Assembly: GCA_040758355.1 (NCBI GenBank)
Contig: JBFLWF010000004.1
Coordinates: 1 to 64,000, forward strand
From: Nitrospirota bacterium
Lineage (GTDB): Bacteria > Nitrospirota > Thermodesulfovibrionia > Thermodesulfovibrionales > Dissulfurispiraceae
Length of the DNA stretch: 64,000 nt
Direction of reading: 5' to 3'
Shown: positions 31,756 through 49,937 of the stretch, in pieces
How positions within the stretch are numbered: position 1 is the first letter of the stretch
Layout: every line of letters begins with the position of its first letter
Position numbers and translations under genes: made by a program
Notes under the pieces: model-generated
What the model was told of the DNA's origin: nothing
The model's database searches: none
The model's input: only the letters and a program-made list of their open reading frames with translations

Positions 31756-32224
31756 CGAGGCTCATGAGAAAACAGGGATGTCAAGGCGGGACTTTTTAGG
31801 TCTTGCATCATTAGGCGCAGCCATAATTTCATCGCTGGCTGTATTAGCAGGAACATTTAGGATGTTCAAACCGAATGTTCGTTATGAAGAGTCGACAAAA
31901 TTCAAGATAGGCAAGCCGGAAGACTTCCCTGCAGGAACAGTAAGAAAGCTTGATGACAAAGGCATCTTTATATTTTCAAAGGATGACGGCATCTATGCGA
32001 TATCGGCTATATGCACGCATCTCGGCTGCATCGTGAATCAGGTAGATTGGGGATTCCTGTGTCCATGCCACGGCTCGAGATACAATGAGCATGGAAAGGT
32101 CATTGGAGGTCCTGCACCGAGGAGCCTTGCATGGCTCGAGATAAGCGAGGCTATTGACGGCAGCCTTGAAGTTGACACGGCAAAGAGTGTTCCTGTCGGG
32201 ACAAAGCTCAAACTTTATGCATAA
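31748..32224 (+). CDS. Rieske [2Fe-2S] protein (Tat-exported)
   Basis: SRRDFL; CTHLGC; CPCHGS; GPAPRSL. Confidence 0.93.
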
Positions 32225-32244
32225 AAAATAAAGAGGTCAAGGCT

Positions 32245-33801
32245 ATGAATGAAATGAAACAATCCGGAATCGATGTATTTAAACATAACATTAAGTCTTT
32301 ACTGGGGTCGTTTGCAGGCTCCTATCTGAGAAGCGGCAAGCCCACATCCGACAAGTCGAGGGCGGCTGCAATGTTCAATAACTTTTTCCTCCATGTCCAG
32401 GGGGTCAAGACGCACATAAATACCTTAAGACCGACTTATACATTGGGTCTGGGGCTTATATCCTTCTTCCTTTTGATCATCACCGTCATATCGGGCGTCC
32501 TTCTTATGGTCTACTACAACCCATCGATAGAGCACGGGTATACCAGCGTAAAGGACATAAACTATGTGGTCTTTGCCGGCAAACTGATAAGGAATGTGCA
32601 TAAATGGGCAGGCGAAGGAATGATAATCTTTGTCCTGCTGCACATGGCAAGGGTCTTCTACACAAGCTCATACAAAAAAGGAAGGGAATTCAACTGGGTT
32701 GTCGGCATAGTACTGCTGATACTCACATTCGGAATCAACCTATCTGGTTATATGCTTCCATGGGATCAGCTTTCATACTGGGCATTGGTTATTGTTGCAA
32801 ACATCATACAATCTCCAAAAGAGATCACAGACTCGCTGGGCATAACAAACTTCTTCGATATCGGCGGCTTCTCTAAAGAGCTATTCCTCGGCGGTTTAAC
32901 TGCAGGCAAGGAATCCCTCACAAGGGTCTATCTACTCCATATAATGCTCTTTCCAATCTTTTTATTCATATTCCTCGGCGTGCATTTCTGGAGGATAAGA
33001 AAGGATGGAGGTCTCACAAAACCGGATGTGTTTGAGCCAAAGCCCATCGATGCAGGATTGGCAGCAATTCCTGAAAAAAGAGGAGGCATATTCCCTACAA
33101 ACAAGACATATGGCCTTATGGAGCTTGCCCATGGCAGGACGCCTGTTGTTGACAGGGATGTGGAAAACACCGTGCTCAGCTGGCCGAATCTCTTAATAGC
33201 AGAGGCAGCGTTGTTTGTATTCTGCCTTGCCGGCGTCACTGTTTATTCATTCTTTATAGACGCGCCGCTTAAAGAATTAGCTAATCCGATGATACCAGAA
33301 AACCCTGCAAAGGCGCCGTGGTATTTTCTTGGTCTTCAGGAACTTCTCTCATACTCTGCATTTATGGGCGGGGTAGGCCTTCCGGGATTGGCGCTCTTAG
33401 GGCTTGCACTTATACCGTATCTTGACAGGGAAGAACAGCATGTAGGAATCTGGTTTTCTAACAAACAGGGGAAGCGTGTTGCCATCGAGGCGCTGATTGC
33501 TGGCACGATTGTAGTAATCGGACTTCTTGCATTCGTGATAAATTTCGGATGGTTCAGGAACTGGTGGCCCAATGTTCCGCAGCTTTTAATCACCCTCATA
33601 AACCCGGGTAATATCTGGGTGGGCTTTATGATTGCGTGGTCGATTTATGTGATAAAGAGGACAGGTTCAACGAGGATGGGTGCAATAGCCTTATTCACGA
33701 TGTTCCTGATCAGCTTTCTGATTTATACATATGTAGGAACTGAATTAAGAGGGCCAAACTGGGATTTCTTCTGGTCGAAGAGCCAGTGGCCGGCTCATTA
33801 A
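32245..33801 (+). CDS. Cytochrome b (fused b6 + subunit IV) of a Rieske/cyt b complex
   Basis: RNVH, LHMAR, GYMLPWDQ, LLH, VHF; PAKAPWYF in place of PEWY. Confidence 0.9.
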   Translation: MNEMKQSGIDVFKHNIKSLLGSFAGSYLRSGKPTSDKSRAAAMFNNFFLHVQGVKTHINTLRPTYTLGLGLISFFLLIITVISGVLLMVYYNPSIEHGYTSVKDINYVVFAGKLIRNVHKWAGEGMIIFVLLHMARVFYTSSYKKGREFNWVVGIVLLILTFGINLSGYMLPWDQLSYWALVIVANIIQSPKEITDSLGITNFFDIGGFSKELFLGGLTAGKESLTRVYLLHIMLFPIFLFIFLGVHFWRIRKDGGLTKPDVFEPKPIDAGLAAIPEKRGGIFPTNKTYGLMELAHGRTPVVDRDVENTVLSWPNLLIAEAALFVFCLAGVTVYSFFIDAPLKELANPMIPENPAKAPWYFLGLQELLSYSAFMGGVGLPGLALLGLALIPYLDREEQHVGIWFSNKQGKRVAIEALIAGTIVVIGLLAFVINFGWFRNWWPNVPQLLITLINPGNIWVGFMIAWSIYVIKRTGSTRMGAIALFTMFLISFLIYTYVGTELRGPNWDFFWSKSQWPAH

Positions 33802-33850
33802 TTAAGAGAGCAAGTGAGTGATCAAATTTTAAGATAAAAGAGGGAGAGAC

Positions 33851-35266
33851 ATGCGCAACAGGTTCTTTTTATGGATATTGTTTTTGTCCGGAGCAGTTCT
33901 CTTTGTTTTTACACTGATTGCTGCTTACAGGGAGATATCGCCTGAATGGAAGAGATATCAGGCGCAATACAAAGAGCAGATCATCAAACTCGCAAAAGAC
34001 GATGCAGTGAAAAAAAAGGCAAAGGAATTGGTTCCGGCAGTGCAGCAGATGTACCTTGGAGCCCTTAACAGGATTGACCGCTGCACGAGCTGCCATATAG
34101 GCGTCGAAAATCCGATGATGGCGAATGCCAAACTGCCGCTTAAGCAGCACAGCGGTGATTATTTAAAGAATCATCCACCTGATAAGTTTGGCTGCACTGT
34201 CTGCCATTACGGACAGGGCCGCGCCACAAACAAAAAAGAGGCGCATGCTGCAACCCGCGATACGCATTGGGACTTCCCGACCATGCCATTAAAGTATATA
34301 CAGAGTTCATGCACGCAATGCCATGATTACGAGATGCTGAGCGCAAAGGGCTATGACAATATCGTTAAGGGGGCAAAACTCTTCAGGGAAAAAGGGTGCA
34401 GGGGATGCCACAAACTAAATGGCATCGGAGGCGCTCTCGGCAAAAAGCTCGATGTTGTCGGCTCACAGCCGATTGCATACTTCCCGATGAGATTTGTCGA
34501 AGGCGACAAGACAACCTACAACTGGCACAAACAGCACTTCACCGATCCGAGGGCGCTTGTCCCGGAGAGCGAGATGAAGATCAATGTTAAGCCGGAGGAA
34601 ACGGATTTGCTGGCAACCTATGCGCTCTCACTCCGCGCAGGGGAGATGCCCAAAGATTACAGGAGAATAAAGGGTACAATGACTGTAGAAAAGCCCGACG
34701 AAGGCGAAGCGCTTTACAAGATGTTCTGCATCGCATGCCATACAGATGGCAAGGAGAGCTACTTTGATGAGATATTCAACCGCACAGTCCCTGCGATTAT
34801 GAAACCTGCGTTCTTAAAGACTGCCGATGAAAAGTACATCAAAAAGGTTATGGAAGATGGTCGTGCAGGCACACAGATGACCTCATGGAAGGCAACTGCC
34901 GGAGGACTTACCGATGCAGAGATTAACAAGATAATCACCTATATAACAAAGGATAGACCGGCTGCAAAACCCGAGAGGTTTGATTTTGCCGGATTTAAAA
35001 CGGATTTAAAACGCGGCGAAGATCTATACAATATCCGCTGTGCGCTCTGCCACGGCAAAAAAGGTCAGGGCGGTGAGGGATTCCTTGGGCTTAACCTGAG
35101 AAATCCTGTGGTGCAGGGCGCCGACCCCGAGTTTCTTGCCATAACGGTCAGGGATGGAAGGTCAGAGACATCCATGCCTCCATTCGGCAAAAAAGGCGTG
35201 GGGCTTACAGACCATGATATAGCAGATGTGGTCTCTTATGTAAAAACACTGTCAAAAAAGAAATGA
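33851..35266 (+). CDS. Membrane-anchored hexaheme cytochrome c
   Basis: Six CxxCH motifs (CTSCH, CTVCH, CTQCH, CRGCH, CIACH, CALCH). Confidence 0.88.
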   Translation: MRNRFFLWILFLSGAVLFVFTLIAAYREISPEWKRYQAQYKEQIIKLAKDDAVKKKAKELVPAVQQMYLGALNRIDRCTSCHIGVENPMMANAKLPLKQHSGDYLKNHPPDKFGCTVCHYGQGRATNKKEAHAATRDTHWDFPTMPLKYIQSSCTQCHDYEMLSAKGYDNIVKGAKLFREKGCRGCHKLNGIGGALGKKLDVVGSQPIAYFPMRFVEGDKTTYNWHKQHFTDPRALVPESEMKINVKPEETDLLATYALSLRAGEMPKDYRRIKGTMTVEKPDEGEALYKMFCIACHTDGKESYFDEIFNRTVPAIMKPAFLKTADEKYIKKVMEDGRAGTQMTSWKATAGGLTDAEINKIITYITKDRPAAKPERFDFAGFKTDLKRGEDLYNIRCALCHGKKGQGGEGFLGLNLRNPVVQGADPEFLAITVRDGRSETSMPPFGKKGVGLTDHDIADVVSYVKTLSKKK

Positions 35267-35300
35267 TTGAAATTAAATATAAAGTGTGAGAGGATTGGAG

Positions 35301-36059
35301 ATGAAAGTTAAAGTATTTGTATTGTCGGTTATTCTCTTAATGTCTCAACAAACAGTCTTTGGAGCAGAGGCTCAAAAGGGCGATTTAGGCAAGAAGGTTT
35401 ATGAAGAGCGCTGCCAGATTTGCCATGGCGCAAAAGGCGATGGCAAGGGACTGGTGGGCGTTATGAAGAGGTCGGAAAAGAGTGGAAGAATTATAAATGT
35501 AGAGGCGAGGGACTTTACCCTCGGTGTCTTCAGGTTCCGCACCACCTCAACCGGATGTCTGCCTGCAAATGAAGACCTTGTATCTTTAGTAAATAAGGGC
35601 ATTCCAAGGTCATTTATGCCGCCTCATAAAGACCAGCTTTCAATGGAAGAAAAGAAGGCTGTTGCCGACCATATAAAGACCTTTTCAACGAGGTGGAAAG
35701 AGGAAGAACCCTGCAAATCCATACCTGTAAAAAAACCAAAATGGGTTGGCAGTCGTTCTTCTGTTGAAAAGGGCAAAAAGATATATAAAGAGATGAAATG
35801 CTGGGAATGCCACGGCGATGATGGAAAAGGCAAAGGACCAAAGTCGGATACGATCAAAGACGACTGGGGAAAACCTATAGTGCCGTTTGATTTTACTACA
35901 GGCGCTACCAAGATGGGAGATGCCCCTGAAAATGTTTATACAGCATATACAACAGGACTTGACGGCACGGGTATGCCTTCATATGAGGACTCTCTGAAAG
36001 AGGACGAGAGATGGCATCTTGTCTCATATACGCTCAAATTGATGGGAAAGGTTAAGTAG
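35301..36059 (+). CDS. Periplasmic diheme cytochrome c, paralog 1
   Basis: Signal peptide; CQICH, CWECH; distal MP motifs. Confidence 0.88.
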   Translation: MKVKVFVLSVILLMSQQTVFGAEAQKGDLGKKVYEERCQICHGAKGDGKGLVGVMKRSEKSGRIINVEARDFTLGVFRFRTTSTGCLPANEDLVSLVNKGIPRSFMPPHKDQLSMEEKKAVADHIKTFSTRWKEEEPCKSIPVKKPKWVGSRSSVEKGKKIYKEMKCWECHGDDGKGKGPKSDTIKDDWGKPIVPFDFTTGATKMGDAPENVYTAYTTGLDGTGMPSYEDSLKEDERWHLVSYTLKLMGKVK

Positions 36060-36218
36060 GGCCTCTGAAGGCCTTTATCTTACAGCACAAGGGGGTGAAT
36101 ATCGAAGAAAAAAGCACGGGGGAATTAGATTAAGGGGTAGCAGTATCTTTTAAACAGTCGGGTAAAAGGAGCAACAAACAGTATCAATAAAAATTGATAC
36201 AAACGGGGAGGCAGAAAA

Positions 36219-37004
36219 ATGAAAGATAATAGTAAAAAGTTAACGACTGCTACAATAATCTTTTTAATGCTTCTAACATTGATCGTTGGAGCAGTTGCTG
36301 TGGATGCAGCAGAGAATAAGACAATCGAGTTGGGCAAGAAGGTCTATGAAAAACGTTGTGTTATCTGCCACGGCCCTAAAGGCGATGGCAAGGGGCTGGT
36401 CGGCATCGTTCACAGGTACCAGAAGAGGGGTGCTGTACAGACTATTTTCCCGAGGGATTTTACAACAGGAGTTTATAGATTCCGCACAACTGCCACAGGT
36501 TGCCTGCCGACAAACGACGATCTTCTGAGAGTTGTAACAGGCGGTATTCCGAGGGCATACATGCCGTCTCATGAGGATGTGCCATTGGATGAAAGGAAAG
36601 CCGTCGCAGAGTATATCAAGACATTTTCAAAAAGGTGGAAAGAGGAAGAAGCGTGCAAGCCTTTTATCGTGAAAGCTCCCAAGTGGGTTGGAAATTCCGA
36701 ATCAACGGATAAAGGTAAAAAATTATACAAAGAGATGAAGTGCTGGGAGTGCCACGGCGAGCACGGCAAGGGTGACGGTCCCAAATCAGACAGGCTGAAA
36801 GACGACTGGGGAGATCCGATACTTCCATTTGATTTTACTACTGGTGCCCTTAAACTGGGGTTTGCTCCCGAAAATGTTTACACAGCATATACAACAGGAC
36901 TCGATGGTTCGGGCATGCCGTCTTATGAGGACTCAATGAGCGAGGAAGATAGATGGCATCTTGTATCGTATACCCTGATATTGATGGGACGCACCAAGAA
37001 ATAA
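36219..37004 (+). CDS. Periplasmic diheme cytochrome c, paralog 2
   Basis: CVICH, CWECH; highly similar to the preceding gene. Confidence 0.88.
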   Translation: MKDNSKKLTTATIIFLMLLTLIVGAVAVDAAENKTIELGKKVYEKRCVICHGPKGDGKGLVGIVHRYQKRGAVQTIFPRDFTTGVYRFRTTATGCLPTNDDLLRVVTGGIPRAYMPSHEDVPLDERKAVAEYIKTFSKRWKEEEACKPFIVKAPKWVGNSESTDKGKKLYKEMKCWECHGEHGKGDGPKSDRLKDDWGDPILPFDFTTGALKLGFAPENVYTAYTTGLDGSGMPSYEDSMSEEDRWHLVSYTLILMGRTKK

Positions 37005-37042
37005 TTTCTTCATGAAACCGAGAAAAAGAAGGAGGTTTGGAA

Positions 37043-38899
37043 ATGTCTGAAAATAAAAATAAAGACAAAAAGCTTGACAGAAGAGGTTTTCTTAAATTTT
37101 TAGGCGTTGCCGGTGCTGCTGCAGGCGCAGGCATGATTACAAAGGAAATTATCCCGGATTCGGCAAAGAAGACCATTGTAGCAAAGGCTGAGGCTGCTGC
37201 CAACGGCAAGCAGAAGTATGAGGTAAAGCCCGGCGAGTATGATACACACTATGGCTTCTGGAGCGGAGGCCATTCGGGCGAGGTAAGGATTCTTGGTGTC
37301 CCTTCAATGCGCGAGCTCAAAAGGATACCGGTCTTTAACCTGGAGTGCGGCTCCGGCTGGGGATATACCAATGAGAGCAAGAAGCTCCTGAGAGGCGTTA
37401 CTGTTGGAGATACCCATCATGTCCACGGCTCTTATAAAAACGGCACATATGATGGCAAATACCTCTTTGTGAACGATAAGATCAACAACAGGGTTGCGAG
37501 GATAAGGATCGATTATATGGAGGTGGATGCGATACTTGAAGTGCCCAATATACAGGGAATGCACGGACTCTTCCCGCAGAGGCATCCAAAGACAGAATGG
37601 GTTGTTGTAAACAGCGAATTTCAGGTGCCTTTCCCCAACAGGCCGGAAGCGCCGCAAAAGGAGTATTATGGAGCACATACCATAATAGATGCAGAAAGGA
37701 TGGCAGTAATATGCCAGGTCATGATAGAGGAAAACCTTGACCTTGCTGCAACAGATTATCAGGGCAAATACTCGATGGCTACTTCCTACAACACGGAGCA
37801 GGGTGTTGTCATCTCAGAGATGCTCGCAGCCGACCATGACTACATGATTGTCTTTAACTGGGAAAGGATAAGGAATGCGCTGAAGAAAGGCAATTACAAG
37901 ACTATAAACGGCGTGAAGGTCATAGACGGAAGGAGGGGTAAATCCGACATAGTTTTAAGGATACCTGTTCCGAAGAACCCGCATGGCGTCAACATATCGC
38001 CTGACGGGAAATATGCTGTCTGCTCAGGAAAGGTCTCTCCGACATGTACGGTTGTCGACCTCTCAAAGTTGGACCTTGCCTATGCAGGAAAGATAAAGCC
38101 GGCAGAATGCGTAGTTGCAGAGCCGTTCATAGGGCTTGGTCCGCTGCATACAACATTTGACGGCAGGGGCAATGCCATAACATCCGTATTCATTGACAGC
38201 ACCAATGTGAAATGGAATATTGCCAAGGCAATTGAAGCAGAAAGGCAGGGACCCGAGGCAAAGAAGAAGAACCCGCATATTGTGGATGTCCTGGATGTCC
38301 ACTACCAGGTAGGACACATGATGGCATCAATGGCCGAGACAAAAGAGCCGGACGGCAAATGGCTCATATCGCTTAATAAGATGTCAAAGGACAGATTCAT
38401 CAATGTGGGCCCGCTGAAGCCCGAGTGTGAACAGCTTGTGGACTGTAGCGGCGACAAGCTCAAGATCGTTCATGACGGCTCGGCTTATATAGAGCCACAT
38501 GACGTTATCCTTGTGAGGAGGGATTTAATAGAGCCGCATGTAAAAGACCGTTACAATATGTTTGAACATCCACTTGCAACAACAAAGAGCGGGGTTGAGA
38601 GGAAGGGGAATGATGTTATTGTCAGAATGACAGCAAATGCCCCGATGTACGGGCTTCAGGAAGTCAGGGTGAAGAAAGGCAACAGGGTTACTGTCATTGT
38701 GACGAACAATGATGAGATATCCGATCTTACGCACGGCTTTGCCCTTGAACGCCACAACATCAGCTTTGTGGTCGCACCCTTCCAGACAAAATCAGCGACA
38801 TTCACAGCAGACAAGCCCGGCGTATACTGGGCATACTGCACAAACTTCTGCCATGCACTACACCTCGAGATGAGGATGAGGTTCATAGTGGAAGCATGA
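37043..38899 (+). CDS. nosZ: Nitrous oxide reductase with Tat signal
   Basis: DRRGFLK; CuZ histidines (DTHH, MHG, NPHG, GPLH, VGH, EPH); CuA HG...CTNFCHALHLEM; no C-terminal heme domain. Confidence 0.97.
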   Translation: MSENKNKDKKLDRRGFLKFLGVAGAAAGAGMITKEIIPDSAKKTIVAKAEAAANGKQKYEVKPGEYDTHYGFWSGGHSGEVRILGVPSMRELKRIPVFNLECGSGWGYTNESKKLLRGVTVGDTHHVHGSYKNGTYDGKYLFVNDKINNRVARIRIDYMEVDAILEVPNIQGMHGLFPQRHPKTEWVVVNSEFQVPFPNRPEAPQKEYYGAHTIIDAERMAVICQVMIEENLDLAATDYQGKYSMATSYNTEQGVVISEMLAADHDYMIVFNWERIRNALKKGNYKTINGVKVIDGRRGKSDIVLRIPVPKNPHGVNISPDGKYAVCSGKVSPTCTVVDLSKLDLAYAGKIKPAECVVAEPFIGLGPLHTTFDGRGNAITSVFIDSTNVKWNIAKAIEAERQGPEAKKKNPHIVDVLDVHYQVGHMMASMAETKEPDGKWLISLNKMSKDRFINVGPLKPECEQLVDCSGDKLKIVHDGSAYIEPHDVILVRRDLIEPHVKDRYNMFEHPLATTKSGVERKGNDVIVRMTANAPMYGLQEVRVKKGNRVTVIVTNNDEISDLTHGFALERHNISFVVAPFQTKSATFTADKPGVYWAYCTNFCHALHLEMRMRFIVEA

Positions 38900-39018: not shown

Positions 39019-40098
39019 ATGAGAAAAACCATACTATCACTAATATTCCTTTTTGTTTTCATTTACACAGGCATTGGGTACAGTGAGCAATGGAAACTGT
39101 TTGAACATAGATACAGCTATAAATTGGAGGATGTGCTTCAGGCATCGAAATTTGTACAGAAAAAGGGCTACTGGGAAGGTTACAAAGATAATAAACTCGT
39201 AGGTTATGTCTTTATATCCAAGGATTGGACGAGCAAATTGGTCGGTTATGCAGGTAAGCATCTCGAAACGCTTATCGGTATGGATACAAACGGAAACATT
39301 ACGGGCGTAAAACTTCTCTTTCACTCGGAGCCTATAGTCCTGATCGGCCTTAAAGAGGAGCATTATCTGGACTTTATAAAACAATATAAAGGGAAAAACA
39401 TAAAGAGCCCCCTGTCTGTGGGCAGGGAAATATCGATGGATGTCATTACAGGGGCTACGGTTACTGCTGTCGTTCAGAACTCGATAATCCTCGAGAGTGC
39501 GAGAAAGGTTGCCGATGCCACAGGCGTGCTGAAGGTTGCAAAAGGCAAAGGTCGGAAGCTCAGCCAGAAATATGCAGCGCTCACATGGGATGAACTGAAG
39601 AAATCAGGCGCACTTAAAAACATCGTGATAAGGCACAAAGACCTGGGAATCGAAGGCGAAGACCCCTTTCTCGACCTCTATGTCGGAGTTGCGACACAGC
39701 CTTCCATAGGCAGGAGTCTTCTCGGAGATGCTCTCTACAGGGATATCATGGGAAGGCTGAAGAACGGCGAATCTGCGATAGTCATATTTTCAAGAGGGAA
39801 AGGGTCGTTTAAAGGCACCGGATTTGTCCGCGGAGGCGTATTTGACAGATTTAATATTGAACAGGGCGCCAAGGTTCATATGCTGACGGACAAGGATTAC
39901 AGGGTCTTATCCGAACTCCATGCAAAGGGCGCTCCATCTATAGATGAAGGGGGCGTGTTCATTATCAGGGGCAGGGATTTTGATCCGACAGAGCCTTTTA
40001 AATTGAATCTTATACTCCCTTACCGTGTTTCTGTTGCCAAAAAGGAGTTCAAATCTTTTTATACGGAGTACGAGATTCCGGAGAGGTTTTTAGAATAA
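39019..40098 (+). CDS. nosR: NosR N-terminal periplasmic FMN-binding part
   Basis: GYAGK, HSEPI.LIG, DVITGATVT flavinylation motif, FKG.GFVRGG.FDR. Confidence 0.85.
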   Translation: MRKTILSLIFLFVFIYTGIGYSEQWKLFEHRYSYKLEDVLQASKFVQKKGYWEGYKDNKLVGYVFISKDWTSKLVGYAGKHLETLIGMDTNGNITGVKLLFHSEPIVLIGLKEEHYLDFIKQYKGKNIKSPLSVGREISMDVITGATVTAVVQNSIILESARKVADATGVLKVAKGKGRKLSQKYAALTWDELKKSGALKNIVIRHKDLGIEGEDPFLDLYVGVATQPSIGRSLLGDALYRDIMGRLKNGESAIVIFSRGKGSFKGTGFVRGGVFDRFNIEQGAKVHMLTDKDYRVLSELHAKGAPSIDEGGVFIIRGRDFDPTEPFKLNLILPYRVSVAKKEFKSFYTEYEIPERFLE

Positions 40099-40101
40099 TT
40101 C

Positions 40102-42366
40102 ATGTCATCGTTTAGCAGCTTATTAAAGCATATCTTCGAAGATACAATTGAGACACTGAAAATTATCCCATGGATGCAGATATGGGCGCAGAAATGGGCC
40201 TCGATTGCCGTCTTCGCAATATTCCTGTTCGCATTGATAATGATGATGGTTTTCAAGGACAGGCTTGCTAAAAACAGGAAGGTGCTGAATATAGTCGCTT
40301 ACGGTATACTGCCATTTTCGTTTATATATGTTGGACTCGTACTAAAGGCGCAGCCCACAACAACCAACATCGTTATATTGATCAATGGAATAAAAGAAGG
40401 GTCTTTTCCTTTAGGCCTCTTTATCATGGAGCCGTATATATTCCTGTCATTTCTCTTTATTCTTTTAACCATCCTTTTATGGGGCAGGGGCGTTTTCTGC
40501 GGCTGGCTCTGTCCATATGGTGCAATGGTTGAACTTTTAAATAAACTTTATGATAGGTTTTTCCGCAGATTCAGGTTGAGCCTTCCAGAGAAGATTCACT
40601 GGAAGCTTATTTACCTTAAATATGTAATATTCGCAATCATATTAGGCGTATCTTTCTACAACTTCATGCTTTCCGAATACCTTGCCGAGGTCGAACCCTT
40701 CAAGAGCTTTGTATTGAAACTTCACAGGCAGTGGTATTTTGTCCTTTATTTTATCCTGATAACAGCAGGCTCGGTAATAATATACAGGGCGTACTGTCGC
40801 TACCTCTGTCCCCTCGGCGCTGCTTTGAGCTTACCCTCATTCATTAAGTTGATACCTCTGATAAAACTCAAAAGACATGACACGTGTAGAATATGTAAGA
40901 TATGCGGCAGGAGCGAATGCAATTATCAGGCCATTACACCGCATGGCAATATTAAAGTTACCGAATGCCTTAGCTGTCTTGAATGTCAGATAAACTTCTG
41001 GGATGAGGACAAATGCCCTGCATTGATAAAAAAGAAAAAGGAGGGTCGCTCTACAGTCTTCAGCCTTTTACCGTTTGCTTTTTTAATTATATCTGCAATG
41101 CTATTTGTCCCTTCGCTGACATATGCAAAGGCTATAATTGTAGGGACCGATTATCGCACAATCGGCGATGCCCTGAAAAAGGCTAAAAATGGAGATGTCA
41201 TAGAGGTCAAGGCAGGAGAATACAGGGAGAGGCTTAAGATAGATAAGGCCGTGCATCTTAAGGGTATAAACAACCCTGCAATCATTGAAAGCGGAGGGCT
41301 TATAATCACGATAGCGGGCAGGGGCGTTACTGTAGAAGGGTTTACAATCAGAGACGAAAATCCAACATCCCAGTTAGAGAGCGCCGGGATATATATTTCC
41401 AAAGGTTCCGATGGGGCTGTTATAAAAAACAACCGCCTTTACAGCGTTATGCACGGCGTCTGGAGCGTTAGCGCCAGAGGCATAAGGGTGGAAAACAATT
41501 ACATCGAGAGCAAAAAGGATCTCGATAGGAACTACAGGGGTAATGGAATATATCTCGTAGACAGTCAGGAAGCAACTATTATAGGGAACAGAATGGATCA
41601 CTGCCGGGATGGAATGTACATAGAGGTTTCTCACGACGGGAAAATAATGGGCAATGATGTAACAAACTCCCGTTATGCAGTACACACAATGTGGGTGGAC
41701 AGGGTTGTTTTCTCTAAAAACAGGGCATCAGGCAATCTGGTTGGGTTTGCTATTATGTATTCAAAGCAATCCGAGATTACAGATAATATTGCTGTGGGCA
41801 ACAGCACGCACGGCATCCTTCTGATTCAGACTGTAAGGAGCTACATAGCAAGAAATACAGTAATAGGCAATACCAAAGGGGTCTACTTTTACAACTCGAT
41901 ATTTAACAACTTAGTCTCCAATCTTATAATGAATAATAGTCTTGGCCTGCATAACTGGGGAGGTTCCGAAGACAATGCCGTGAATAAGAATTCCTTTATC
42001 GGCAACGAGGTTCAGGTAAAGTTTGTTGCAGGCAGAAACCAGCAGTGGGATAATAACTACTGGAGCGATTATCTGGGATGGGATATGAACGCCGACGGCA
42101 TCGGCGATATGCCATTCGAATCCAATACAGTGGTTGACCATATCTTATGGAGATACCCTGCTGCCAAGTTGTTGTATGCAAGTCCTTCTTTCCAGTTTCT
42201 CTGGATGCTCGAAAAGCAGTTTCCGGTTCTGAAGGTTCCGAGGGTGTTTGATGCAAAACCATCCATGCTTCCGTTGCACAAAGACTGGAAGGAGTTAAAG
42301 GCCAAATATCCATACGCCCCTGAAAAATACTACGGTGAGATGGAAAAAATCCCTGTTGCCCATTGA
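40102..42366 (+). CDS. nosD: Fusion of the NosR C-terminal membrane/FeS domain with NosD
   Basis: WGRGVFCGWLCPYG, EVEPFK, YCRYLCPLG, C..C....C, CLSCLEC, then NosD beta-helix (RGNGI, RDG.Y, RY.VH.M, NYWSDY.GWD...DGIGD). Confidence 0.88.
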   Translation: MSSFSSLLKHIFEDTIETLKIIPWMQIWAQKWASIAVFAIFLFALIMMMVFKDRLAKNRKVLNIVAYGILPFSFIYVGLVLKAQPTTTNIVILINGIKEGSFPLGLFIMEPYIFLSFLFILLTILLWGRGVFCGWLCPYGAMVELLNKLYDRFFRRFRLSLPEKIHWKLIYLKYVIFAIILGVSFYNFMLSEYLAEVEPFKSFVLKLHRQWYFVLYFILITAGSVIIYRAYCRYLCPLGAALSLPSFIKLIPLIKLKRHDTCRICKICGRSECNYQAITPHGNIKVTECLSCLECQINFWDEDKCPALIKKKKEGRSTVFSLLPFAFLIISAMLFVPSLTYAKAIIVGTDYRTIGDALKKAKNGDVIEVKAGEYRERLKIDKAVHLKGINNPAIIESGGLIITIAGRGVTVEGFTIRDENPTSQLESAGIYISKGSDGAVIKNNRLYSVMHGVWSVSARGIRVENNYIESKKDLDRNYRGNGIYLVDSQEATIIGNRMDHCRDGMYIEVSHDGKIMGNDVTNSRYAVHTMWVDRVVFSKNRASGNLVGFAIMYSKQSEITDNIAVGNSTHGILLIQTVRSYIARNTVIGNTKGVYFYNSIFNNLVSNLIMNNSLGLHNWGGSEDNAVNKNSFIGNEVQVKFVAGRNQQWDNNYWSDYLGWDMNADGIGDMPFESNTVVDHILWRYPAAKLLYASPSFQFLWMLEKQFPVLKVPRVFDAKPSMLPLHKDWKELKAKYPYAPEKYYGEMEKIPVAH

Positions 42367-42376
42367 GGTGAATTTA

Positions 42377-43273
42377 ATGCTTGAGTTAAGTGAAATATCG
42401 AAGAACTTCGGAGATGTAAAGGCAGTAGACTCTGTCTCGCTGAAGATGAAGGAAGGCGAGATGCTCGGTCTTGTGGGGCCCAATGGTTCCGGCAAGTCGA
42501 CACTGCTGAAGATAATGCTCGGAATTACAAGGCCGTCGTCAGGCAAGGTCCTTTTCAGCGGCAAAGAATTGGCAGAAAGGGATTGGAAGGAGATCAGAAA
42601 GAGAATAGGGTACATGCCAGAGAGGGTTAACTTTTATGACAACCTCACAGGAAAGGAGACCCTTGAGTTGTTTGCAAGAATCAAAGGAGGAAATCTTAAT
42701 AATATCTCTGAGCTATTAAAAAAGGTTGGCCTTGAGAATGCAGTTGACAGGAGGGTTGGAGGCTATTCCAAGGGGATGAGGCAGAGGCTGAACCTGGCAC
42801 AGGCATTGTCCAATGACCCTGACTTTTTAGTTCTCGATGAACCCACATCAGGGCTTGATCCTGTCGGGACAAAGGAATTCTACAGCATACTCGATGATGT
42901 AAGAACGAGGAAAAAGCTCACGGTCATCCTTTCATCCCATATACTGGCAGAGATTGAAGACAAGATAGACAGGGTCGCAGTGTTGAAGTCAGGATCTCTC
43001 AGGGCAGTGGGGAGTCTTGAAGAACTCTATTCCGGATTCAATCTCCCTTTAAAGATTTCAATAGCCCTTAAGGAAAGGAATGAATCTCTGGAAGATCTTT
43101 TGAAAAAGGAAGGGGCTATGGATATTGGATATAAAGAAGGCTATATTACAGCCAGCATTCAGAGGGAAGATAAACTGAGGCTGCTTTCGGCAGTAATGGA
43201 GAAAAAGGAAAGTTTTGTCGACCTTTCCATAAGAGAGCCGAACCTTGAGGAGGTATTCTTTGGTATTCACTAA
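42377..43273 (+). CDS. nosF: ABC ATPase NosF
   Basis: GPNGSGKST, YSKGMRQR, LDEPTSGLD. Confidence 0.9.
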   Translation: MLELSEISKNFGDVKAVDSVSLKMKEGEMLGLVGPNGSGKSTLLKIMLGITRPSSGKVLFSGKELAERDWKEIRKRIGYMPERVNFYDNLTGKETLELFARIKGGNLNNISELLKKVGLENAVDRRVGGYSKGMRQRLNLAQALSNDPDFLVLDEPTSGLDPVGTKEFYSILDDVRTRKKLTVILSSHILAEIEDKIDRVAVLKSGSLRAVGSLEELYSGFNLPLKISIALKERNESLEDLLKKEGAMDIGYKEGYITASIQREDKLRLLSAVMEKKESFVDLSIREPNLEEVFFGIH

Positions 43274-43277
43274 TGCT

Positions 43278-44090
43278 ATGAGGGCTATAGCCCATAAAGA
43301 ACTTTCCGATAAATTGAAGAGCAGGTGGGTCCTGGTGATTGCTGTGGGATTTGCTGCGCTCACCATTGTTATTTCATATTTTGGAGGGGCTACTGCAGGC
43401 GTTGCAGGGTTCAGGAGCATAGATGCAACCATTGCCAGTCTCACGAGCCTCGTAACCTACTTTATACCTATCTTAGCCCTCACCCTCGGCGGCGGAATAG
43501 TTGCGGATGAGCGTGATAAGGGCACGCTCGAGATATATCTATCGTCCCCTATATCCATCGGTGAATTCATCATGGGAAAATTCTTCGGCCTCGCCATTGC
43601 CCTCGCCATCTCCACACTTGTGGGTCTCGGCGTTTCCGGCGCAATATTGCTGATAAATCTGGGCTTCGGCGCAATAGGCAGTTACAGCATATTCATGCTC
43701 AACTCTGTAGTCCTCGGCCTTATTTTCCTGAGCGTCTCATTTTTAGTGTCCATTCTCTTCAATGAGAGGGCAAGGGTTATTGCCTTTACCGTATTCCTCT
43801 GGCTTTTCTTCGCAGTGCTTTATGACCTGGGTCTGGTGGGCCTTCTCATAATAACCAAAGGCACTGTCGGAAATGAAATATTTTCCACCCTCCTGACATT
43901 AAATCCAGTTGATGTGTATCGCATTCTGAACTTCTTATCCATCGGTGAACTCAAGGTGTTTTTAGGACTGGCATCTGTCGAGCTTCCGTCATACATGAAG
44001 ACGCCTGTCCTATGGGTCATATCGCTGCTGTGGGTGGTGCTGCCCCTTATTGCGAGCTATCGCCTCTTTAAAAGGAGATATCTGGCGTGA
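43278..44090 (+). CDS. nosY: ABC permease NosY
   Basis: IA.KE, E...GTLE..LS.P, GKF.G, YDL, LNP.D.YR. Confidence 0.9.
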   Translation: MRAIAHKELSDKLKSRWVLVIAVGFAALTIVISYFGGATAGVAGFRSIDATIASLTSLVTYFIPILALTLGGGIVADERDKGTLEIYLSSPISIGEFIMGKFFGLAIALAISTLVGLGVSGAILLINLGFGAIGSYSIFMLNSVVLGLIFLSVSFLVSILFNERARVIAFTVFLWLFFAVLYDLGLVGLLIITKGTVGNEIFSTLLTLNPVDVYRILNFLSIGELKVFLGLASVELPSYMKTPVLWVISLLWVVLPLIASYRLFKRRYLA

Positions 44091-44890
44091 AACAAAGAAT
44101 AAAAAACATGGAGGTTAGTATTGTGATTAAGTGTCTTGTAGGTGTTGTATCTGCCCTGCTGTTTTTTGCTGGTGCAGCAATGGGGCATGAGGTTGTGGAT
44201 GTTAAGAATGGTGCAACCATTAAAGGTGTGGTTAAGTTCAAGGGTACTATGCCGCCTGATGAGAGTATTGCCATTGACAGAAATGTGGAGGTCTGCGGAA
44301 AGGAGCAGAAGCTCAATAAATACACTATTACCAACTCGATGGTAAAGAATGTAGTCGTTTTTATAGATGAGCCGAAGAAGGGCAAGCCGATTCCTAAAAA
44401 TACAGCGGTTGCTCTCACCATAAATAAGTGCAGGGTAGAGCCGCTGGTAAGTGTTGGGTTTGTGGGCGGCAAGTTTTTACTCAGAAACGATGATGATATT
44501 CTTCACACTCTTCAGTTAAAGCTCTGGCTTGAGTATCAGAGAAGGGTTTCAGCAAGGCCATTAGAAAATGGCGCAACTATTTACAACATTGCCTTGCCGC
44601 TCAAGGGCAAAAAGATAGAGAAGCCCATAAAAGAATCTCATAGATACCAGCCGGATACAGGGGTCATCAGGGTGACGTCCAATTCCCATTCATGGATGAG
44701 GGGATATGTATTTGTATTTGACCATCCGTATGCAGCAGTGACCGATGAAAAAGGCTCCTTTGTAATAGACAACCTGCTGCCAGGCGAGTATGTCTTGAAG
44801 GTATGGCATGAAGGCTTTGGCTTTCAGGAAAAGAAGATAAAACTTTCACCCAATGAGACGGCAAATATCGAGATAGTGTATGAAAAATAG
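44087..44890 (+). CDS. Secreted carboxypeptidase-regulatory/cupredoxin-like protein, paralog A
   Basis: Signal peptide; N.D..LH, SNSHSWM, HPY.AVTD..G.F, PG.Y...WHE. Confidence 0.7.
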   Translation: MKQRIKNMEVSIVIKCLVGVVSALLFFAGAAMGHEVVDVKNGATIKGVVKFKGTMPPDESIAIDRNVEVCGKEQKLNKYTITNSMVKNVVVFIDEPKKGKPIPKNTAVALTINKCRVEPLVSVGFVGGKFLLRNDDDILHTLQLKLWLEYQRRVSARPLENGATIYNIALPLKGKKIEKPIKESHRYQPDTGVIRVTSNSHSWMRGYVFVFDHPYAAVTDEKGSFVIDNLLPGEYVLKVWHEGFGFQEKKIKLSPNETANIEIVYEK

Positions 44891-45788
44891 GTGGCTCATA
44901 GCCATATTTTTTGTATTTCTTATAGTACTGGCTGTTAATTACAGTGCAGTGGCCAGTGCATTGGAAAAAAGCGCCATGGATTTCAGCCTCAACAACTGGG
45001 ACGGCAGGACTGTATCCCTGAAAGACCTGAAGGGGAAGGTGGTGGTTCTCACCTTTTCATATGCCTACTGTTCTGCCAGATGCCCGATTATAACAGGCCG
45101 CCTTTATTACCTCGATAAAACGATGAATGCACCCGGAGACGTGGTATATCTCCATATGTCTGTTGATCCTGATAATGATACGCCAGAAAGGCGGAAGAAA
45201 TACTTTAACCTATACGGCATAGATGCAACAAAAGACGGCAGATGGATGTTTTTATCAGGCCAAAAAAACAAGATGTCAGAGATATGGGGATTTTATGGGG
45301 TAACGGCAAAGAAGGTTAAAGACAGGAGACTGCCTGAGAAATATTACATGCAGTATGACCCGAAGGTAGTGGTTATAGACAGCAACGGTCTTATCAGGTA
45401 TGAGGTCGGCTTTGATTTTTCGGAAGAAGAAATAAAGTCCCTGATCGAAAAAATATCCTCTAAACCTTCCATAAGGTTTTCTGAAACTAAATTCGATTTC
45501 GGCACGGTTAAAGAGGGGGATATTGTAAGTCATGACTTTGAATTCATTAATGAGGGCAATGGCGTTTTAAAGATAAAAGACCTTATTCCGGCCTGAAAGG
45601 CATGCACGAGCGCCTCTGCCAGTTCGGCAGAGATAGGACCGGGGGAAAAGGGAAAGATCACAGTGACTTTAAACACAAAGGGAAGGTCTGGCAGATGGAG
45701 CAGGACAGTAGAGGTCTGGACGAATGATCCTGAAAAGAAGATGGTAGTGCTTTCGGTCTCGGTTAATTCAATAAAGGAGCGGCAGTGA
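44880..45788 (+). CDS. SCO1/SenC-DUF1573 fusion selenoprotein (UGA 45594-45596 read as Sec; 302 aa)
   Basis: SCO CSARC; the DUF1573 domain continues in frame past the TGA (IPA-U-KACT...IGPGEKGKITV...WTNDP) to TGA 45786-45788, which overlaps the next GTG; SECIS hairpin present. Confidence 0.8.
45614..45632 (+). other. Bacterial SECIS element
   Basis: CTCTGCC-AGTTC-GGCAGAG: 7-bp stem, GU in apical loop, 24 nt between UGA and loop. Confidence 0.75.
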
Positions 45789-46792
45789 TAAATAGGAGGG
45801 AGTTTCTTGCAGGTTCATTGATGCTGGCCGGCTATGCAGCGATGGGGGGCAGTAATGTCTTTGCATTGCCTGTCAGTGATGCAAAGGTAAAGGCTGTAAG
45901 CATGAAAATAACATGCACGATGGAGGTGTTGAAACCGCCAAGGAATAAAAACATAAATATATGGACGCCCATTCCATCCGACAACAGCGAGCAGAAAATC
46001 TCTAACCTCTCTGTCAAATCGAGGATGCAATACAAAATGACAGAAGATATCTCTAATAGGAACAGGATGTTCTTTTTCAATACAGACAAACTGACAGCAG
46101 GCGAAGCCATAACCATGAAATATATGATGGTCAGGAAGACTGCGGATGTGGCCGAAGACAGAGACGAAAGGCCTGAAAAACATATCGAGCCGTCTGAATG
46201 GGAAAGATGGGATGACAATATCGCAAGATATGTCGATGAACTTGTGGGCAAAGAAAACGATCCTGTAAAGATAGGAAGAAAGATATACGATGCGCTTATA
46301 GACAGCCTCAAATATGTTCATGAGGCATGCGGGAGGGGAGTAAGCACATTGATGTTTGAAGAGAAGATCGGCAGGTGCGATGAGTTCCATGCCCTCTTCA
46401 GGAGCATGATGATGTATAAGAAGATTCCGGTTAAATGGGAACAGGGCATGGCCCTGCCATATCCATCTGTTATTAAAAAGAGTGGCGAGGTCGAAGCAGA
46501 CTGCATAAACGCCCATAGCTGGGTGAAATTCTATATAGGCGACAACAAATGGATGCCTGTGGATTTATCGGAGGCAAAGAGGAGACCTGACTTGAGGGAT
46601 TTCTATTTTGGCAAGCTTGCTGCCAACAGGGTCAAGATGTCCAATGGAAGGGGGATAACACTTAATCCGCCGCAGAAAAGCCCTATGAATACTTTTCCGT
46701 ATACTTATGCAGAGGCAGACGGCATACCGTTGATATACGGTCATAACTACAAAAACAGGATGAAATACGAAGTAATAAAGATCGAGGCATAA
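45785..46792 (+). CDS. Tat-exported transglutaminase-like protein
   Basis: NRREFL; G.CDEFH, HSW, W.PVD catalytic triad. Confidence 0.8.
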   Translation: MINRREFLAGSLMLAGYAAMGGSNVFALPVSDAKVKAVSMKITCTMEVLKPPRNKNINIWTPIPSDNSEQKISNLSVKSRMQYKMTEDISNRNRMFFFNTDKLTAGEAITMKYMMVRKTADVAEDRDERPEKHIEPSEWERWDDNIARYVDELVGKENDPVKIGRKIYDALIDSLKYVHEACGRGVSTLMFEEKIGRCDEFHALFRSMMMYKKIPVKWEQGMALPYPSVIKKSGEVEADCINAHSWVKFYIGDNKWMPVDLSEAKRRPDLRDFYFGKLAANRVKMSNGRGITLNPPQKSPMNTFPYTYAEADGIPLIYGHNYKNRMKYEVIKIEA

Positions 46793-46798
46793 ACGAAG

Positions 46799-47287
46799 AT
46801 GAAATGGTTAGTAGCACTAATTTTATCGATTTCTTTGATATTGCCGGCATATGCTACGGAAGGAGTGAAAGAAGGCACGCCGGCGCCGACATTTGTGCTC
46901 CTCGATGAGAATAACAAGAACGTTGATATTGGCACATTTATGGATAGGCCGACGATCATATATTTCACGCACAATGCCTGTTTTTACTGCACACAGTTGA
47001 TATTGTACCTGAAAAGGGCGCAGGCAAAATTTGGAGAGAAGAACCTTCGAATTATAGGCATAAATATTATGGCTAAAGACCAGAAGCTGATAAAGGCATA
47101 CAAGGAAGAACTCGGCTTTATCTTCCCAATGTTTGCCGGAAACAGGGAAGATGTCCTCAGGGCATACAGGATAAATTATGTTCCTGTCATAGTATTTGTG
47201 GACTCAAAAAAAATAGTAAGAAAGGTGGTGGGACATTACATACACGAGGATGAGCTTCACAGAAATATAAAAAATATAATGAAGTAA
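46799..47287 (+). CDS. Periplasmic TlpA/peroxiredoxin-like thioredoxin-fold protein
   Basis: Signal peptide; G..AP.F.L, CFYC, cis-Pro VP. Confidence 0.8.
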   Translation: MKWLVALILSISLILPAYATEGVKEGTPAPTFVLLDENNKNVDIGTFMDRPTIIYFTHNACFYCTQLILYLKRAQAKFGEKNLRIIGINIMAKDQKLIKAYKEELGFIFPMFAGNREDVLRAYRINYVPVIVFVDSKKIVRKVVGHYIHEDELHRNIKNIMK

Positions 47288-47333: not shown

Positions 47334-48092
47334 ATGAAAAAGATGAAGAAGGTTTTTGCATTAGTTGTAGTTTTCTCTATGTTGCTTGCAGCAACCTCTT
47401 TTGCCTATGAGGTTGTGGATGTTAAGGGTGGAGGGAGCATTAAGGGTAAGATCAAGGCAACAGAAAAGATAAAAGACCCTGTAATCCCCATTAAGATCAA
47501 ACCAAAACCGGATCCAAAAGAGACCGAGCAGGAAAAGGCTACCTGCGGCGAAAGCCAGCAGGCAGGGATGTATATTATATCGGCTGCAAATGAGGTAAAG
47601 AATGTCTTTGTTATAGTAGAGGATGTGAAGAAGGGAAAGGCTGCGCCAAAGGCTGACCTCACAATCGACAACAATAAATGTTATTTTGTGCCGCTCGTAG
47701 GCATCACCTATAAAGGTTCTGATTTTATAGTGAAGAACAGCGACCCCCTTCTGCACAACACAAACCTTGGGCTAAAGCTCGATGACAAGAGAAGCACCGT
47801 GTATAATCTTGCCCTTCCGAGGAAGGATCAGGTCATAAAAAAGCCTGCAAGGAGAACAGGCCTTCACGAGGTGAAATGCGATGCCCATGAGTGGATGAGG
47901 GCATATGTATATGTTTCGGAGCATCCGTATGTAGCCATAACAGATGCAAGCGGCAGCTTCGAGATAAAGGACCTGCCTCCCGGAAAATACAAGGTAAGGA
48001 TATGGCATGAAGGATTCAAAGAGGTTACAAAGGATGTGGATGTATCCGCAGGCAAGGCTTCGGACCTGAGTGTGACTCTTACAAAGAAATAA
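47334..48092 (+). CDS. Secreted carboxypeptidase-regulatory/cupredoxin-like protein, paralog B
   Basis: gaggagg RBS; LLHN ... CDAHEWM type-1-Cu-like ligand set. Confidence 0.72.
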   Translation: MKKMKKVFALVVVFSMLLAATSFAYEVVDVKGGGSIKGKIKATEKIKDPVIPIKIKPKPDPKETEQEKATCGESQQAGMYIISAANEVKNVFVIVEDVKKGKAAPKADLTIDNNKCYFVPLVGITYKGSDFIVKNSDPLLHNTNLGLKLDDKRSTVYNLALPRKDQVIKKPARRTGLHEVKCDAHEWMRAYVYVSEHPYVAITDASGSFEIKDLPPGKYKVRIWHEGFKEVTKDVDVSAGKASDLSVTLTKK

Positions 48093-48165: not shown

Positions 48166-48639
48166 ATGAGACAGCTTTTTTGGGTAATAGTAGTTCTGTG
48201 CCTTGCAGCATGTGCCAGGGATAAGGGAGAAAAACCCCTTCCTGTCGAGTTTACCAGAGACCATGCATGCAATGTATGCGGAATGATCATAGTGGATTTC
48301 CCAGGTGCAAAGGCGCAGATACATTATAAGAACAAGAAATACGATGCATTCTGCAGCACGCTGGATATGTTCCTGTTTTACCTTCAGCCTGACCGTCCGG
48401 GAAATATCGTTGCCGTCTATGTGAATGATATGGGGAAGTCCGATTGGGAACATCCAAAGGGCAACTGGATAGATGCTGAAAAGGCATTTTATGTTTACGG
48501 AGGGGATGTGATGGGGCCTATGGGCGAGGCACTGGTCCCATTTTCTGATATAAAGGATGCCGAGGCATACATAAAGAAACACGGAGGCAGGATAATCAGA
48601 TTCAATGACGTGACAATGGAGATCCTTAAGCCAAGGTGA
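48166..48639 (+). CDS. nosL: NosL copper chaperone lipoprotein
   Basis: Lipobox LAAC; CNVCGM, PG.KAQ, WIDA..A.YV, GPMG, HGG. Confidence 0.9.
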   Translation: MRQLFWVIVVLCLAACARDKGEKPLPVEFTRDHACNVCGMIIVDFPGAKAQIHYKNKKYDAFCSTLDMFLFYLQPDRPGNIVAVYVNDMGKSDWEHPKGNWIDAEKAFYVYGGDVMGPMGEALVPFSDIKDAEAYIKKHGGRIIRFNDVTMEILKPR

Positions 48640-48983: not shown

Positions 48984-49424
48984 ATGAAGAAGACATTCCT
49001 ATCAACATTAATATTTTTATTCACAGTGACGGTATTGACGGGATTTGTCTTTGCCGAAGGTAAAAAGGCAAAGGCTGCTAAGAGCACCTCTGCAAGCAAT
49101 ATCCTTTATGTATGCAACTGCGGTCCTGAGTGTAAGTGTAATACCGTATCGACAAAGACCGGCAAATGTGCATGCGGCGCCGAGCTTGTCCCGATGCATA
49201 TCCTGAAGATCGAAAATGACGAGGCCATACTCTGCACATGCGGCAAGGACTGCACATGCAAGCTTGATCCTAACGACCCTTCAAAGTGCGGCTGTGGAAA
49301 GCAGGTAAGAAGGGTCAGCATAAAGGGCATGTATGCGTGCAGTTGCGGCGCTGGCTGCGAGTGCAATACTGTGTCTGACAAGCCAGGCAAGTGCAAGTGC
49401 GGCGCTGATTTGAAAAAGATATAG
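48984..49424 (+). CDS. Secreted Cys-rich (metallothionein-like) protein
   Basis: Signal peptide; 18 Cys as three CxC-x3-CxC-x9-CxCG repeats; gaggagg RBS. Confidence 0.75.
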   Translation: MKKTFLSTLIFLFTVTVLTGFVFAEGKKAKAAKSTSASNILYVCNCGPECKCNTVSTKTGKCACGAELVPMHILKIENDEAILCTCGKDCTCKLDPNDPSKCGCGKQVRRVSIKGMYACSCGAGCECNTVSDKPGKCKCGADLKKI

Positions 49425-49436
49425 ACGGAGGTCTTA

Positions 49437-49937
49437 ATGAACAGAAGAGGTATTTTTGTTTTTTTTGTTTTAGTATTTTTTTGTATCCCGGCAGTAAGTG
49501 TTTTATCTGCCGAGAAACTCGATATTGAACATCCTTTTAAGAGTCCGAAAAAATATACCGAAAAGGAGAAATGCGACAACTGCGGTATGAACTTGAATAA
49601 GTTTGCAAGGACGAGGTACGAGTTTCAGACATCGAAGGGTACATTCCATACATGCTCGATACAATGTGTTGCTGTAATGGGCATGAAGCTGAAAGAGGAA
49701 CCAAAAAATGTGAAAGCGGCTGAATATCTCCATCCGGAGCATATGCTCGATGCTGAAAAGGCATTTTTTGTCGTGGGTTCTACAGCGCCCGGGACAATGA
49801 CCACAAAGAGCAAGATAGCATTTCCATCGAAGAAAGAGGCAGAAAGGTTTGCTGCCAAATACGGCGGCACTGTGACCAATTATGAAGGCGCCCTGTCCGA
49901 GGCAAAGAAGGGTGTTTATGTCGGGCACAACCACTAA
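49437..49937 (+). CDS. nosL: Second NosL-family protein (non-lipoprotein)
   Basis: CDNCGM, CSIQC, DAEKAFFVVGS...GTM, AF, F...YGG. Confidence 0.8.
   Translation: MNRRGIFVFFVLVFFCIPAVSVLSAEKLDIEHPFKSPKKYTEKEKCDNCGMNLNKFARTRYEFQTSKGTFHTCSIQCVAVMGMKLKEEPKNVKAAEYLHPEHMLDAEKAFFVVGSTAPGTMTTKSKIAFPSKKEAERFAAKYGGTVTNYEGALSEAKKGVYVGHNH

Follow-up and report, generated by a model that had tools for sequence, protein, structure and literature searches.

Organization of the nos locus

The window, i.e., the whole stretch of 64,000 nt that was analysed, carries a nos gene cluster with an SCO gene that continues beyond an in-frame TGA into a DUF1573 domain (Table 1). The gene order nosZ-nosR-nosD-nosF-nosY-CPR1-SCO-TGL-thioredoxin-CPR2-nosL is conserved and recurs in the fetched loci as far as their contigs reach. 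The nosZ gene of the window matches the Tat-type clade I NosZ known from Thermodesulfovibrionia (PMC11033732, accessible part). The literature searched on this cassette together with nosZ yielded nothing on topic, and the conserved set of accessory genes is apparently undescribed. In the window, the C-terminal part of the split nosR (39019-42366) is fused in frame to nosD; several relatives have an intervening stop. In genome G022, the closest relative, CPR1 is absent between nosY and SCO (L030:9973-10001). In the nos clusters of family f4 (L100:16050-19134 and L155:10218-13302), CPR2 is followed by genes encoding a CydA-like membrane protein and cytochromes c. The region directly 5' of nosZ (29920-37004) encodes a flavoprotein, a Rieske protein, a cytochrome b, and three cytochromes c, which likely constitute an electron route dedicated to NosZ. 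An exported metallothionein-like protein of 146 aa with about 20 Cys is encoded between the two nosL genes (48984-49424).

The invariant residues of CPR2 resemble a blue-copper site, and we take them to be a possible copper site. CPR1 has Ser in place of the motif Cys of CPR2 (S-x2-H versus C-x2-H), and in family f26 (L101-L103) the motif reads C-x2-H-x2-E. Possibly, CPR1 and CPR2 are unrecognised cupredoxins of the nos cluster. The single-sequence fold of CPR2 reached a pLDDT of 44.5, which is too low to be used, and its Atlas matches were hypothetical CarboxypepD_reg clusters only. TGL is nearly restricted to genomes with nosZ. Its putative catalytic residues Cys198 and His244 are variable, Cys182 and Cys240 are invariant, and the protein may be non-catalytic in some lineages.

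Table 1. Features of the nos locus in the window, with coordinates, strand and supporting evidence.
Feature	Position	Strand	Evidence
nosZ, TAT-type (clade I)	37037..38899	+	TIGR04244, 815.7 bits
nosR, N-terminal part	39019-40098	+	profile/domain search
nosR, C-terminal part, fused to nosD	40102-42366	+	profile/domain search
nosF	42335-43273	+	profile/domain search
nosY	43245-44090	+	profile/domain search
CPR1, exported CarboxypepD_reg-like protein	44087..44890	+	domain search; fused to the Sec domain in 7 other loci
Full read-through CDS, 302 aa: signal peptide, SCO and Sec-containing DUF1573 (Ig-like) domain	44880..45788	+	translation with TGA=U, domain search
Predicted N-terminal export signal/anchor: basic N-region, hydrophobic core, A-S-A end	44880..44960	+	inferred from hydropathy
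SCO1/SenC thioredoxin-fold domain	44976..45389	+	PF02630, 69 bits; top folds ScoI/Sco1
C64-x3-C68 (CxxxC) motif	45069..45083	+	both Cys in 81/81 homologues
His92, invariant	45153..45155	+	His in 81/81 homologues of the SCO subfamily
Tyr159 at the canonical Sco copper-ligand His position	45354..45356	+	aligned to His of 4wbj and 4hde
DUF1573/OS_HP2-like Ig-fold domain	45471..45746	+	PF07610, 76.3 bits (cut-off 26.1)
UGA (Sec239) and U-K-A-C motif	45594..45605	+	frame, alignment, conservation
bSECIS hairpin CTCTGCC-AGTTC-GGCAGAG: 7-bp stem, AGUUC loop, 24 nt from UGA to loop	45614..45632	+	folding, covariation
TGL, transglutaminase-like protein with RR signal	45785..46792	+	domain search; directly 3' of the Sec domain in 13/13 loci
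TlpA/ResA-like exported thioredoxin (CxxC), candidate electron donor	46799..47287	+	C61 and C64 in 30/30
CPR2, paralogue of CPR1	47334..48092	+	His141 and C182-x2-H185-x2-M188 invariant, 24/24
nosL	48166..48639	+	domain search
nosL, second copy	49437-49937		domain search

An SCO-DUF1573 reading frame interrupted by UGA

The frame opened by the ATG at 44880 runs for 238 codons up to the TGA at 45594-45596. It remains open for another 63 codons until the TGA at 45786-45788, which overlaps the GTG start (45785) of the downstream TGL gene. An earlier note on this DNA had described exactly this arrangement, with a stop in the middle of a DUF1573 domain, and had claimed an SCO-DUF1573 fusion. Both domains are indeed found once TGA is translated as U, SCO1-SenC at residues 33-170 (E 5e-19) and DUF1573 at residues 198-289 (E 2e-21), the latter being complete only if the UGA is read through. 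U239 aligns with the first Cys of the C-G-C motif in the Cys homologues L081 and L091. The hydropathy maximum (3.5) is situated at residues 7-19 and no further membrane helix follows up to residue 238; the read-through product is thus predicted to be exported to the periplasm. The AlphaFold2 model of residues 28-302, computed from an alignment of 58 rows, is confident throughout (mean pLDDT 96.2, pTM 0.84) and places the UGA position centrally in a domain made up entirely of strands, a predicted beta-sandwich. A Foldseek search with the whole model returned mainly SCO folds (best 4txo, 1xzo, and 4wbj) plus 2qsv.

In read run X1, possibly the source of the assembly, the UGA codon occurs without alternative letters at a depth of 237, and contig X2 of a separate study covers it with 0 differences. 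Due to these uniform reads and the unchanged independent contig, the sequencing error that the earlier note had named as a possible refutation is excluded. A survey of 25 cluster genes in 43 loci detected no second in-frame UGA whose position is conserved.

Decoding of the UGA as selenocysteine

Almost certainly, as judged from the comparative data below, the in-frame UGA is decoded as selenocysteine. The source genome (99% complete) contains selA, selB, and selD above the respective cut-offs as well as tRNA-Sec (selC), i.e., all four components that had been proposed for a check; selD itself has an in-frame TGA. In 90 of the 401 Nitrospirota genomes, 99 family matches were found, of which 87 have one TGA and 12 are without stop. 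With the UGA retained to this extent and aligned to Cys in homologues, selection acting on the downstream codons and the Sec machinery in place, the postulated hidden selenoprotein is well supported. An exception is given by the draft genome G267, which carries the Sec domain and selB and in which selA was not found.

The hairpin 3' of the UGA has a folding energy of -12.7 kcal/mol with a z of -2.19 in the local window, and longer folding windows give z of -0.03 to -1.17. The bSECIS model (PMC13188914, Fig. 2 of the accessible part) allows loops of 3-9 nt, stems of 4-16 bp, a spacing of 16-37 nt, a G within the first two loop positions and an MFE <= -7.5. With a loop of 5 nt (A-G-U), a stem of 7 bp, a spacing of 24 nt and -12.7, the hairpin lies within all of these bounds. 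By itself it is weak evidence for a SECIS, since z approaches 0 in wider windows and similar hairpins follow all stop types: a loosely defined hairpin (at least 7 bp) was found after 46 of 729 TGA-ended ORFs of the source genome (~6%), 76 of 1118 TAA-ended and 45 of 483 TAG-ended ORFs. It is accepted as real because it is conserved across UGA loci. Stem cells are paired in 145 of 150 cases across 25 UGA loci with varying pair types, compared to 105 +/- 3.8 in 2000 shuffles, a count flattered by the choice of a 5- or 6-nt loop for each sequence and by the relatedness of the rows. In both Cys homologues tested (n=2), the loop motif is missing and the folding energies are -5.8 and 0 kcal/mol. Two UxxC hairpins, those of L080 (-5.5) and L084 (-6.1), are weaker than the threshold of -7.5 kcal/mol. 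Thus, the SECIS predicted in the earlier note is present at its place with a covarying stem, and the Cys-aligned homologues and the conserved combination of UGA and hairpin that it had suggested to look for were both found.

For the codons 3' of the UGA, dN (0.04-0.24) is far below dS (0.35-2.6) in 6 of 6 pairs, which argues for purifying selection past the UGA. Within the SECIS codons, 0 synonymous changes were counted relative to L030 and L031, the two closest informative pairs, compared to 10 and 20.5 further downstream.

The alternative that the TGA is a true stop, arisen by nonsense mutation or sequencing error, so that the protein finishes at residue 238, agrees with the occurrence of only truncated forms in databases: 20 of 81 homologous protein clusters in public databases terminate precisely at the UGA site, and a full-length SCO-DUF1573 fusion with Cys was not found among proteins of near or greater length (a second search was weak). 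The chance occurrence of comparable hairpins after some 6% of TGA stops would fit as well. Nevertheless, a true stop is extremely improbable in view of a codon shared across families, purifying selection downstream, a covarying SECIS, a complete Sec machinery and an identical independent contig; furthermore, it would halve the beta-sandwich predicted in the model. Under selenocysteine decoding, the 20 database clusters are revealed as truncated at a UGA codon.

Gating of TGL by read-through via translational coupling was considered and left as a weak idea, as TGL has its own Shine-Dalgarno-like AAGGAG and the overlap with TGL is not kept in L042, L055, and L100.

Other likely selenoproteins are encoded on contigs C3, C9, C13, and C29 of the source genome. 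Among the likely selenoproteins of this genome are a formate dehydrogenase (RL-U-HAP), SelD, a DsbC/G-like protein (D-U-PYC) and a rhodanese (GGVT-U), in case of the latter with a hairpin whose 5' stem is identical to that in the window.

A nos-restricted clade of DUF1573 domains

The Sec domain scores 73.6-76.8 bits with the OS_HP2 (seleno)protein model NF041425 and thus remains under its cut-off of 100, as do 4 of 4 U-G-C relatives from Nitrospirota (98-aa pieces, 71-90 bits). The UxxC motif claimed for the window was confirmed as U-K-A-C, with U at the first Cys position of the C-G-C of homologues, and it differs from the U-G-C of OS_HP2. In total, 14 domains with a U-[K/R]-x-C motif were identified in 13 loci, and in agreement with the nos context given in the earlier note, every one of these loci lies inside the conserved nos cassette. 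In a quick tree of 45 rows, these domains form a single clade (SH-aLRT 86) nested among 28 U-G-C rows. U-G-C DUF1573 relatives are common in the order outside nos clusters, either stand-alone or fused to cytochrome c; in L009, L015, L018, and L020 of the same order, a diheme cytochrome c is fused C-terminally. Searches of PDB sequences with the Ig domain, CPR2, and TGL gave no match below E 0.01.

Three fusion layouts of the Sec domain were observed. It is fused to SCO in six loci (the window, G022, L031, L032, L042, and L055) and to CPR1 in seven (G055, G051, G180, G267, G275, G286, and G346). The G286 fusion (L134:8604-10058) consists of CPR1 and a tandem pair of DUF1573 domains. Each of the two has a separate UGA (URLC and UKRA, the latter without the second Cys) and the same hairpin, and the product is predicted to be a double selenoprotein. 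New are the U-[K/R]-x-C motif, the fusions to SCO and CPR1, and the first pathway-specific context found for DUF1573.

Distribution and history of the Sec domain

The named homologues all belong to the Thermodesulfovibrionales of the Nitrospirota. In the sample of 401 Nitrospirota genomes, TGL and nosZ (above cut-off) occur in 16 genomes each, 15 of which share both. In G241, the cassette is situated at a contig edge and is without a nosZ match; G039 kept nosZ and lacks SCO, the Sec domain, TGL, and the thioredoxin, so that CPR1 adjoins CPR2. Due to the location of all 13 U-[K/R]-x-C loci in the cassette and the co-occurrence of TGL and nosZ, the Sec domain is tied to nos. Among the 16 cassette genomes, three contain SCO and the Sec domain, six the Sec domain only, seven SCO only, and none lacks both; the Sec domain is thus present in 9 of 16. 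This either-or pattern would fit overlapping functions of SCO and Sec domain but is suggestive only, since five of the six Sec-only genomes belong to one family. Four of five Sec-only genomes tested have weak, more distant SCO-family matches elsewhere.

Missing Sec machinery as an explanation for Sec-less cassettes was rejected, because all 11 distinct SCO-only genomes that were tested contain selA (from 22 entries that included two duplicates and four genus mates without nos). In a TGL tree of 31 rows, all 13 Sec-bearing cassettes together with the short Sec-less contig L057 form one clade (100/100). In the simplest history, a U-G-C-derived domain would have been inserted once 5' of TGL in an SCO-only cassette, would then have been fused to either neighbour, and SCO would have been lost in some lines. 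The best reading of these sequence data is that the Sec domain is an optional and late-acquired part of the nos cassette. It is not an essential nos maturation factor, since it is missing from 7 of 16 cassette genomes and the whole submodule is missing in G039.

The genomes G001-G004 of the same genus as the source genome (4 of 4) have neither nosZ nor DUF1573, and the fusion of G022, which belongs to another genus, is 86% identical to that of the window. This distribution would reflect patchy inheritance or transfer.

Possible role in N2O reductase maturation

In the SCO domain, the position of the copper-ligand His is occupied by Tyr in 79, Phe in 2, and His in 0 of 81 homologues, which brings to light a His-less SCO subfamily. 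In Sco proteins, this His confers the metal binding that thioredoxins lack (PMC6696091, accessible part). Because the ligand is replaced and the CxxxC motif is kept, the sequence points to a thiol reductase rather than a copper chaperone. The invariant His92, a position which is not His in the Sco proteins of B. subtilis or B. japonicum, might serve as a substitute copper ligand. For the SCO domain modelled together with the CuA domain of NosZ, the score was 0.01 (mark 0.32), and this model is given no weight.

NosZ gives the only match to the CuA domain (PF00116) in the source genome, PCuAC was not found there, and the one strong COX1-family match, which adjoins a NorC-like gene, is read as NorB (a second, weak match is located on C29). 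For these reasons, the CuA centre of NosZ is the candidate client. In other bacteria, Sco1 of T. thermophilus acts as an oxidoreductase that reduces CuA cysteines, TlpA does so in B. japonicum, and P. denitrificans requires senC2 and pcuC to reduce N2O when copper is low (PMC7558416, in the sections at hand). As the most likely explanation, although held at no more than about even odds, we propose that the Sec domain belongs to an optional thiol-reducing relay that keeps the CuA cysteines of NosZ reduced for copper loading. Electrons supplied by the neighbouring TlpA-like thioredoxin would pass to a fast Sec239-Cys242 pair and from there to the C64/C68 pair of SCO or directly to the client, which would be the NosZ CuA. 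Where SCO was lost, the Sec domain borne by CPR1 would meet the same need. Under selenium shortage, a stop at the UGA would leave a whole SCO domain, as in the Sec-less cassettes.

The earlier note had suggested selenium-dependent CuA assembly or thiol reduction. With the SCO His replaced by Tyr, thiol reduction is the better option. As a general requirement, selenium-dependent CuA assembly does not hold, since 7 of the 16 sampled cassettes are without the Sec domain despite selA in their genomes, and G039 lost this domain along with its neighbours and kept nosZ. In the genomes that lost SCO, selenium-dependent assembly may still apply. It is tempting to speculate that in the Thermodesulfovibrionales the Sec Ig domain took over the job of Sco in building the NosZ CuA centre, which we regard as a bold and rather unlikely scenario. 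If it were true, N2O reduction in the SCO-less lineages (6 of 16) would depend on selenium supply, i.e., selenium would directly control the only biological N2O sink and DUF1573 would have its first function.

Alternatively, the Sec-Cys pair may be a site for binding and hand-over of copper(I) that makes up for the lost His of Sco or the lacking Cys of CPR1 and takes the place of PCuAC. This is conceivable but somewhat improbable. The genome is devoid of PCuAC, each fusion partner is short of one canonical-looking ligand (His to Tyr in SCO and S-x2-H in CPR1), and with Cox11 an Ig-fold copper chaperone that uses Cys is described (PMC7558416, same sections). However, the His-to-Tyr exchange and Cys-less CPR1 are shared by cassettes in which the Sec domain was never present, therefore these losses are not compensated by it, and UxxC is commonly a redox motif according to the accessible part of PMC13188914. 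Less probable still, and in our view unlikely, is a service to the TGL/thioredoxin submodule, e.g., the reduction of Cys182/Cys240 of TGL, by which NosZ would be affected indirectly. The location of the Sec domain directly 5' of TGL in all 13 loci regardless of the fusion partner would be expected in this case, and the joint loss of Sec domain, TGL, and thioredoxin in G039 fits a TGL partnership equally well. On the other hand, a single insertion at one spot explains the adjacency, and 7 of the 16 sampled genomes have TGL but no Sec domain. At a site where TGL of most SCO-only cassettes carries an additional Cys, TGL of the Sec clade has Ser, but this difference tracks the clade and is hence not independent evidence. 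That the domain has a general antioxidant or stress function in the periplasm without a dedicated client would accord with the frequent U-G-C relatives outside nos clusters; it is very unlikely for the U-[K/R]-x-C clade, which was found solely in the nos cassette (13 of 13 loci), each time fused to one of its genes.

DUF1573 selenoproteins have been known since 2007 without a function, and the U-[K/R]-x-C clade connects one of them with a single pathway. Since a candidate client can be named and cassettes with and without the domain exist in nature, the function of DUF1573 becomes testable. Should the proposed role in a thiol-reducing relay prove true, the supply of selenium could influence how these anaerobes remove N2O.

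Comparison with known systems

DUF1573 is an already catalogued selenoprotein family without known activity. OS_HP2 (DUF1573) selenoproteins were reported in 2007 (PMC1976440), and the family is tabled with the motif UGC in PMC9312934 and PMC13188914, each cited from its accessible part. In the table of 119 selenoprotein families given in the latter, SCO is not an entry, and a differing Sec motif denotes a distinct subfamily. The deep-Sep representatives in the accessible main text and supplements of PMC12013277 have U-G-C and an N-terminal DUF1573 and are without SCO; a term search of this text and four supplements for SCO, carboxypeptidase, and Nitrospir gave no match. The literature searched for a function of DUF1573 contained nothing relevant, and a selenoprotein linked to N2O reductase maturation was not found in the literature searched, from which most subscription papers and bioRxiv supplements were outside the scope.

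The domain in the window shares with the DUF1573/OS_HP2 family (PF07610, NF041425) the Pfam domain, Sec at the first Cys, predicted export and an in-frame SECIS. In contrast to this family, its U-[K/R]-x-C motif is one residue longer than U-G-C, and the domains of its clade are located C-terminally on SCO or CPR1, occur in nos cassettes only and remain below the NF041425 cut-off.

Similar to Sco1/SenC/ScoI of B. japonicum, B. subtilis, and T. thermophilus and SenC2 of P. denitrificans, the window protein has the Sco fold, a CxxxC motif and an N-terminal export segment, and a candidate CuA client is encoded in the same genome. It differs from them by Tyr in place of the copper His, the invariant His92 and the extra Sec-bearing Ig domain. 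The N-terminal domain of DsbD is a periplasmic Ig-fold domain whose redox-active pair passes electrons to thioredoxin-fold partners; the Sec domain may work in a like manner, by analogy only. With the TlpA-ScoI-PcuC relay of B. japonicum (PMC7558416 and PMC6696091, accessible parts), the locus has in common that a TlpA-like thioredoxin and Sco are encoded together, here beside a likely CuA client. Unlike in that relay, PCuAC is absent, two CarboxypepD_reg-like proteins and a transglutaminase-like protein are encoded in the cassette, and selenium is probably involved.
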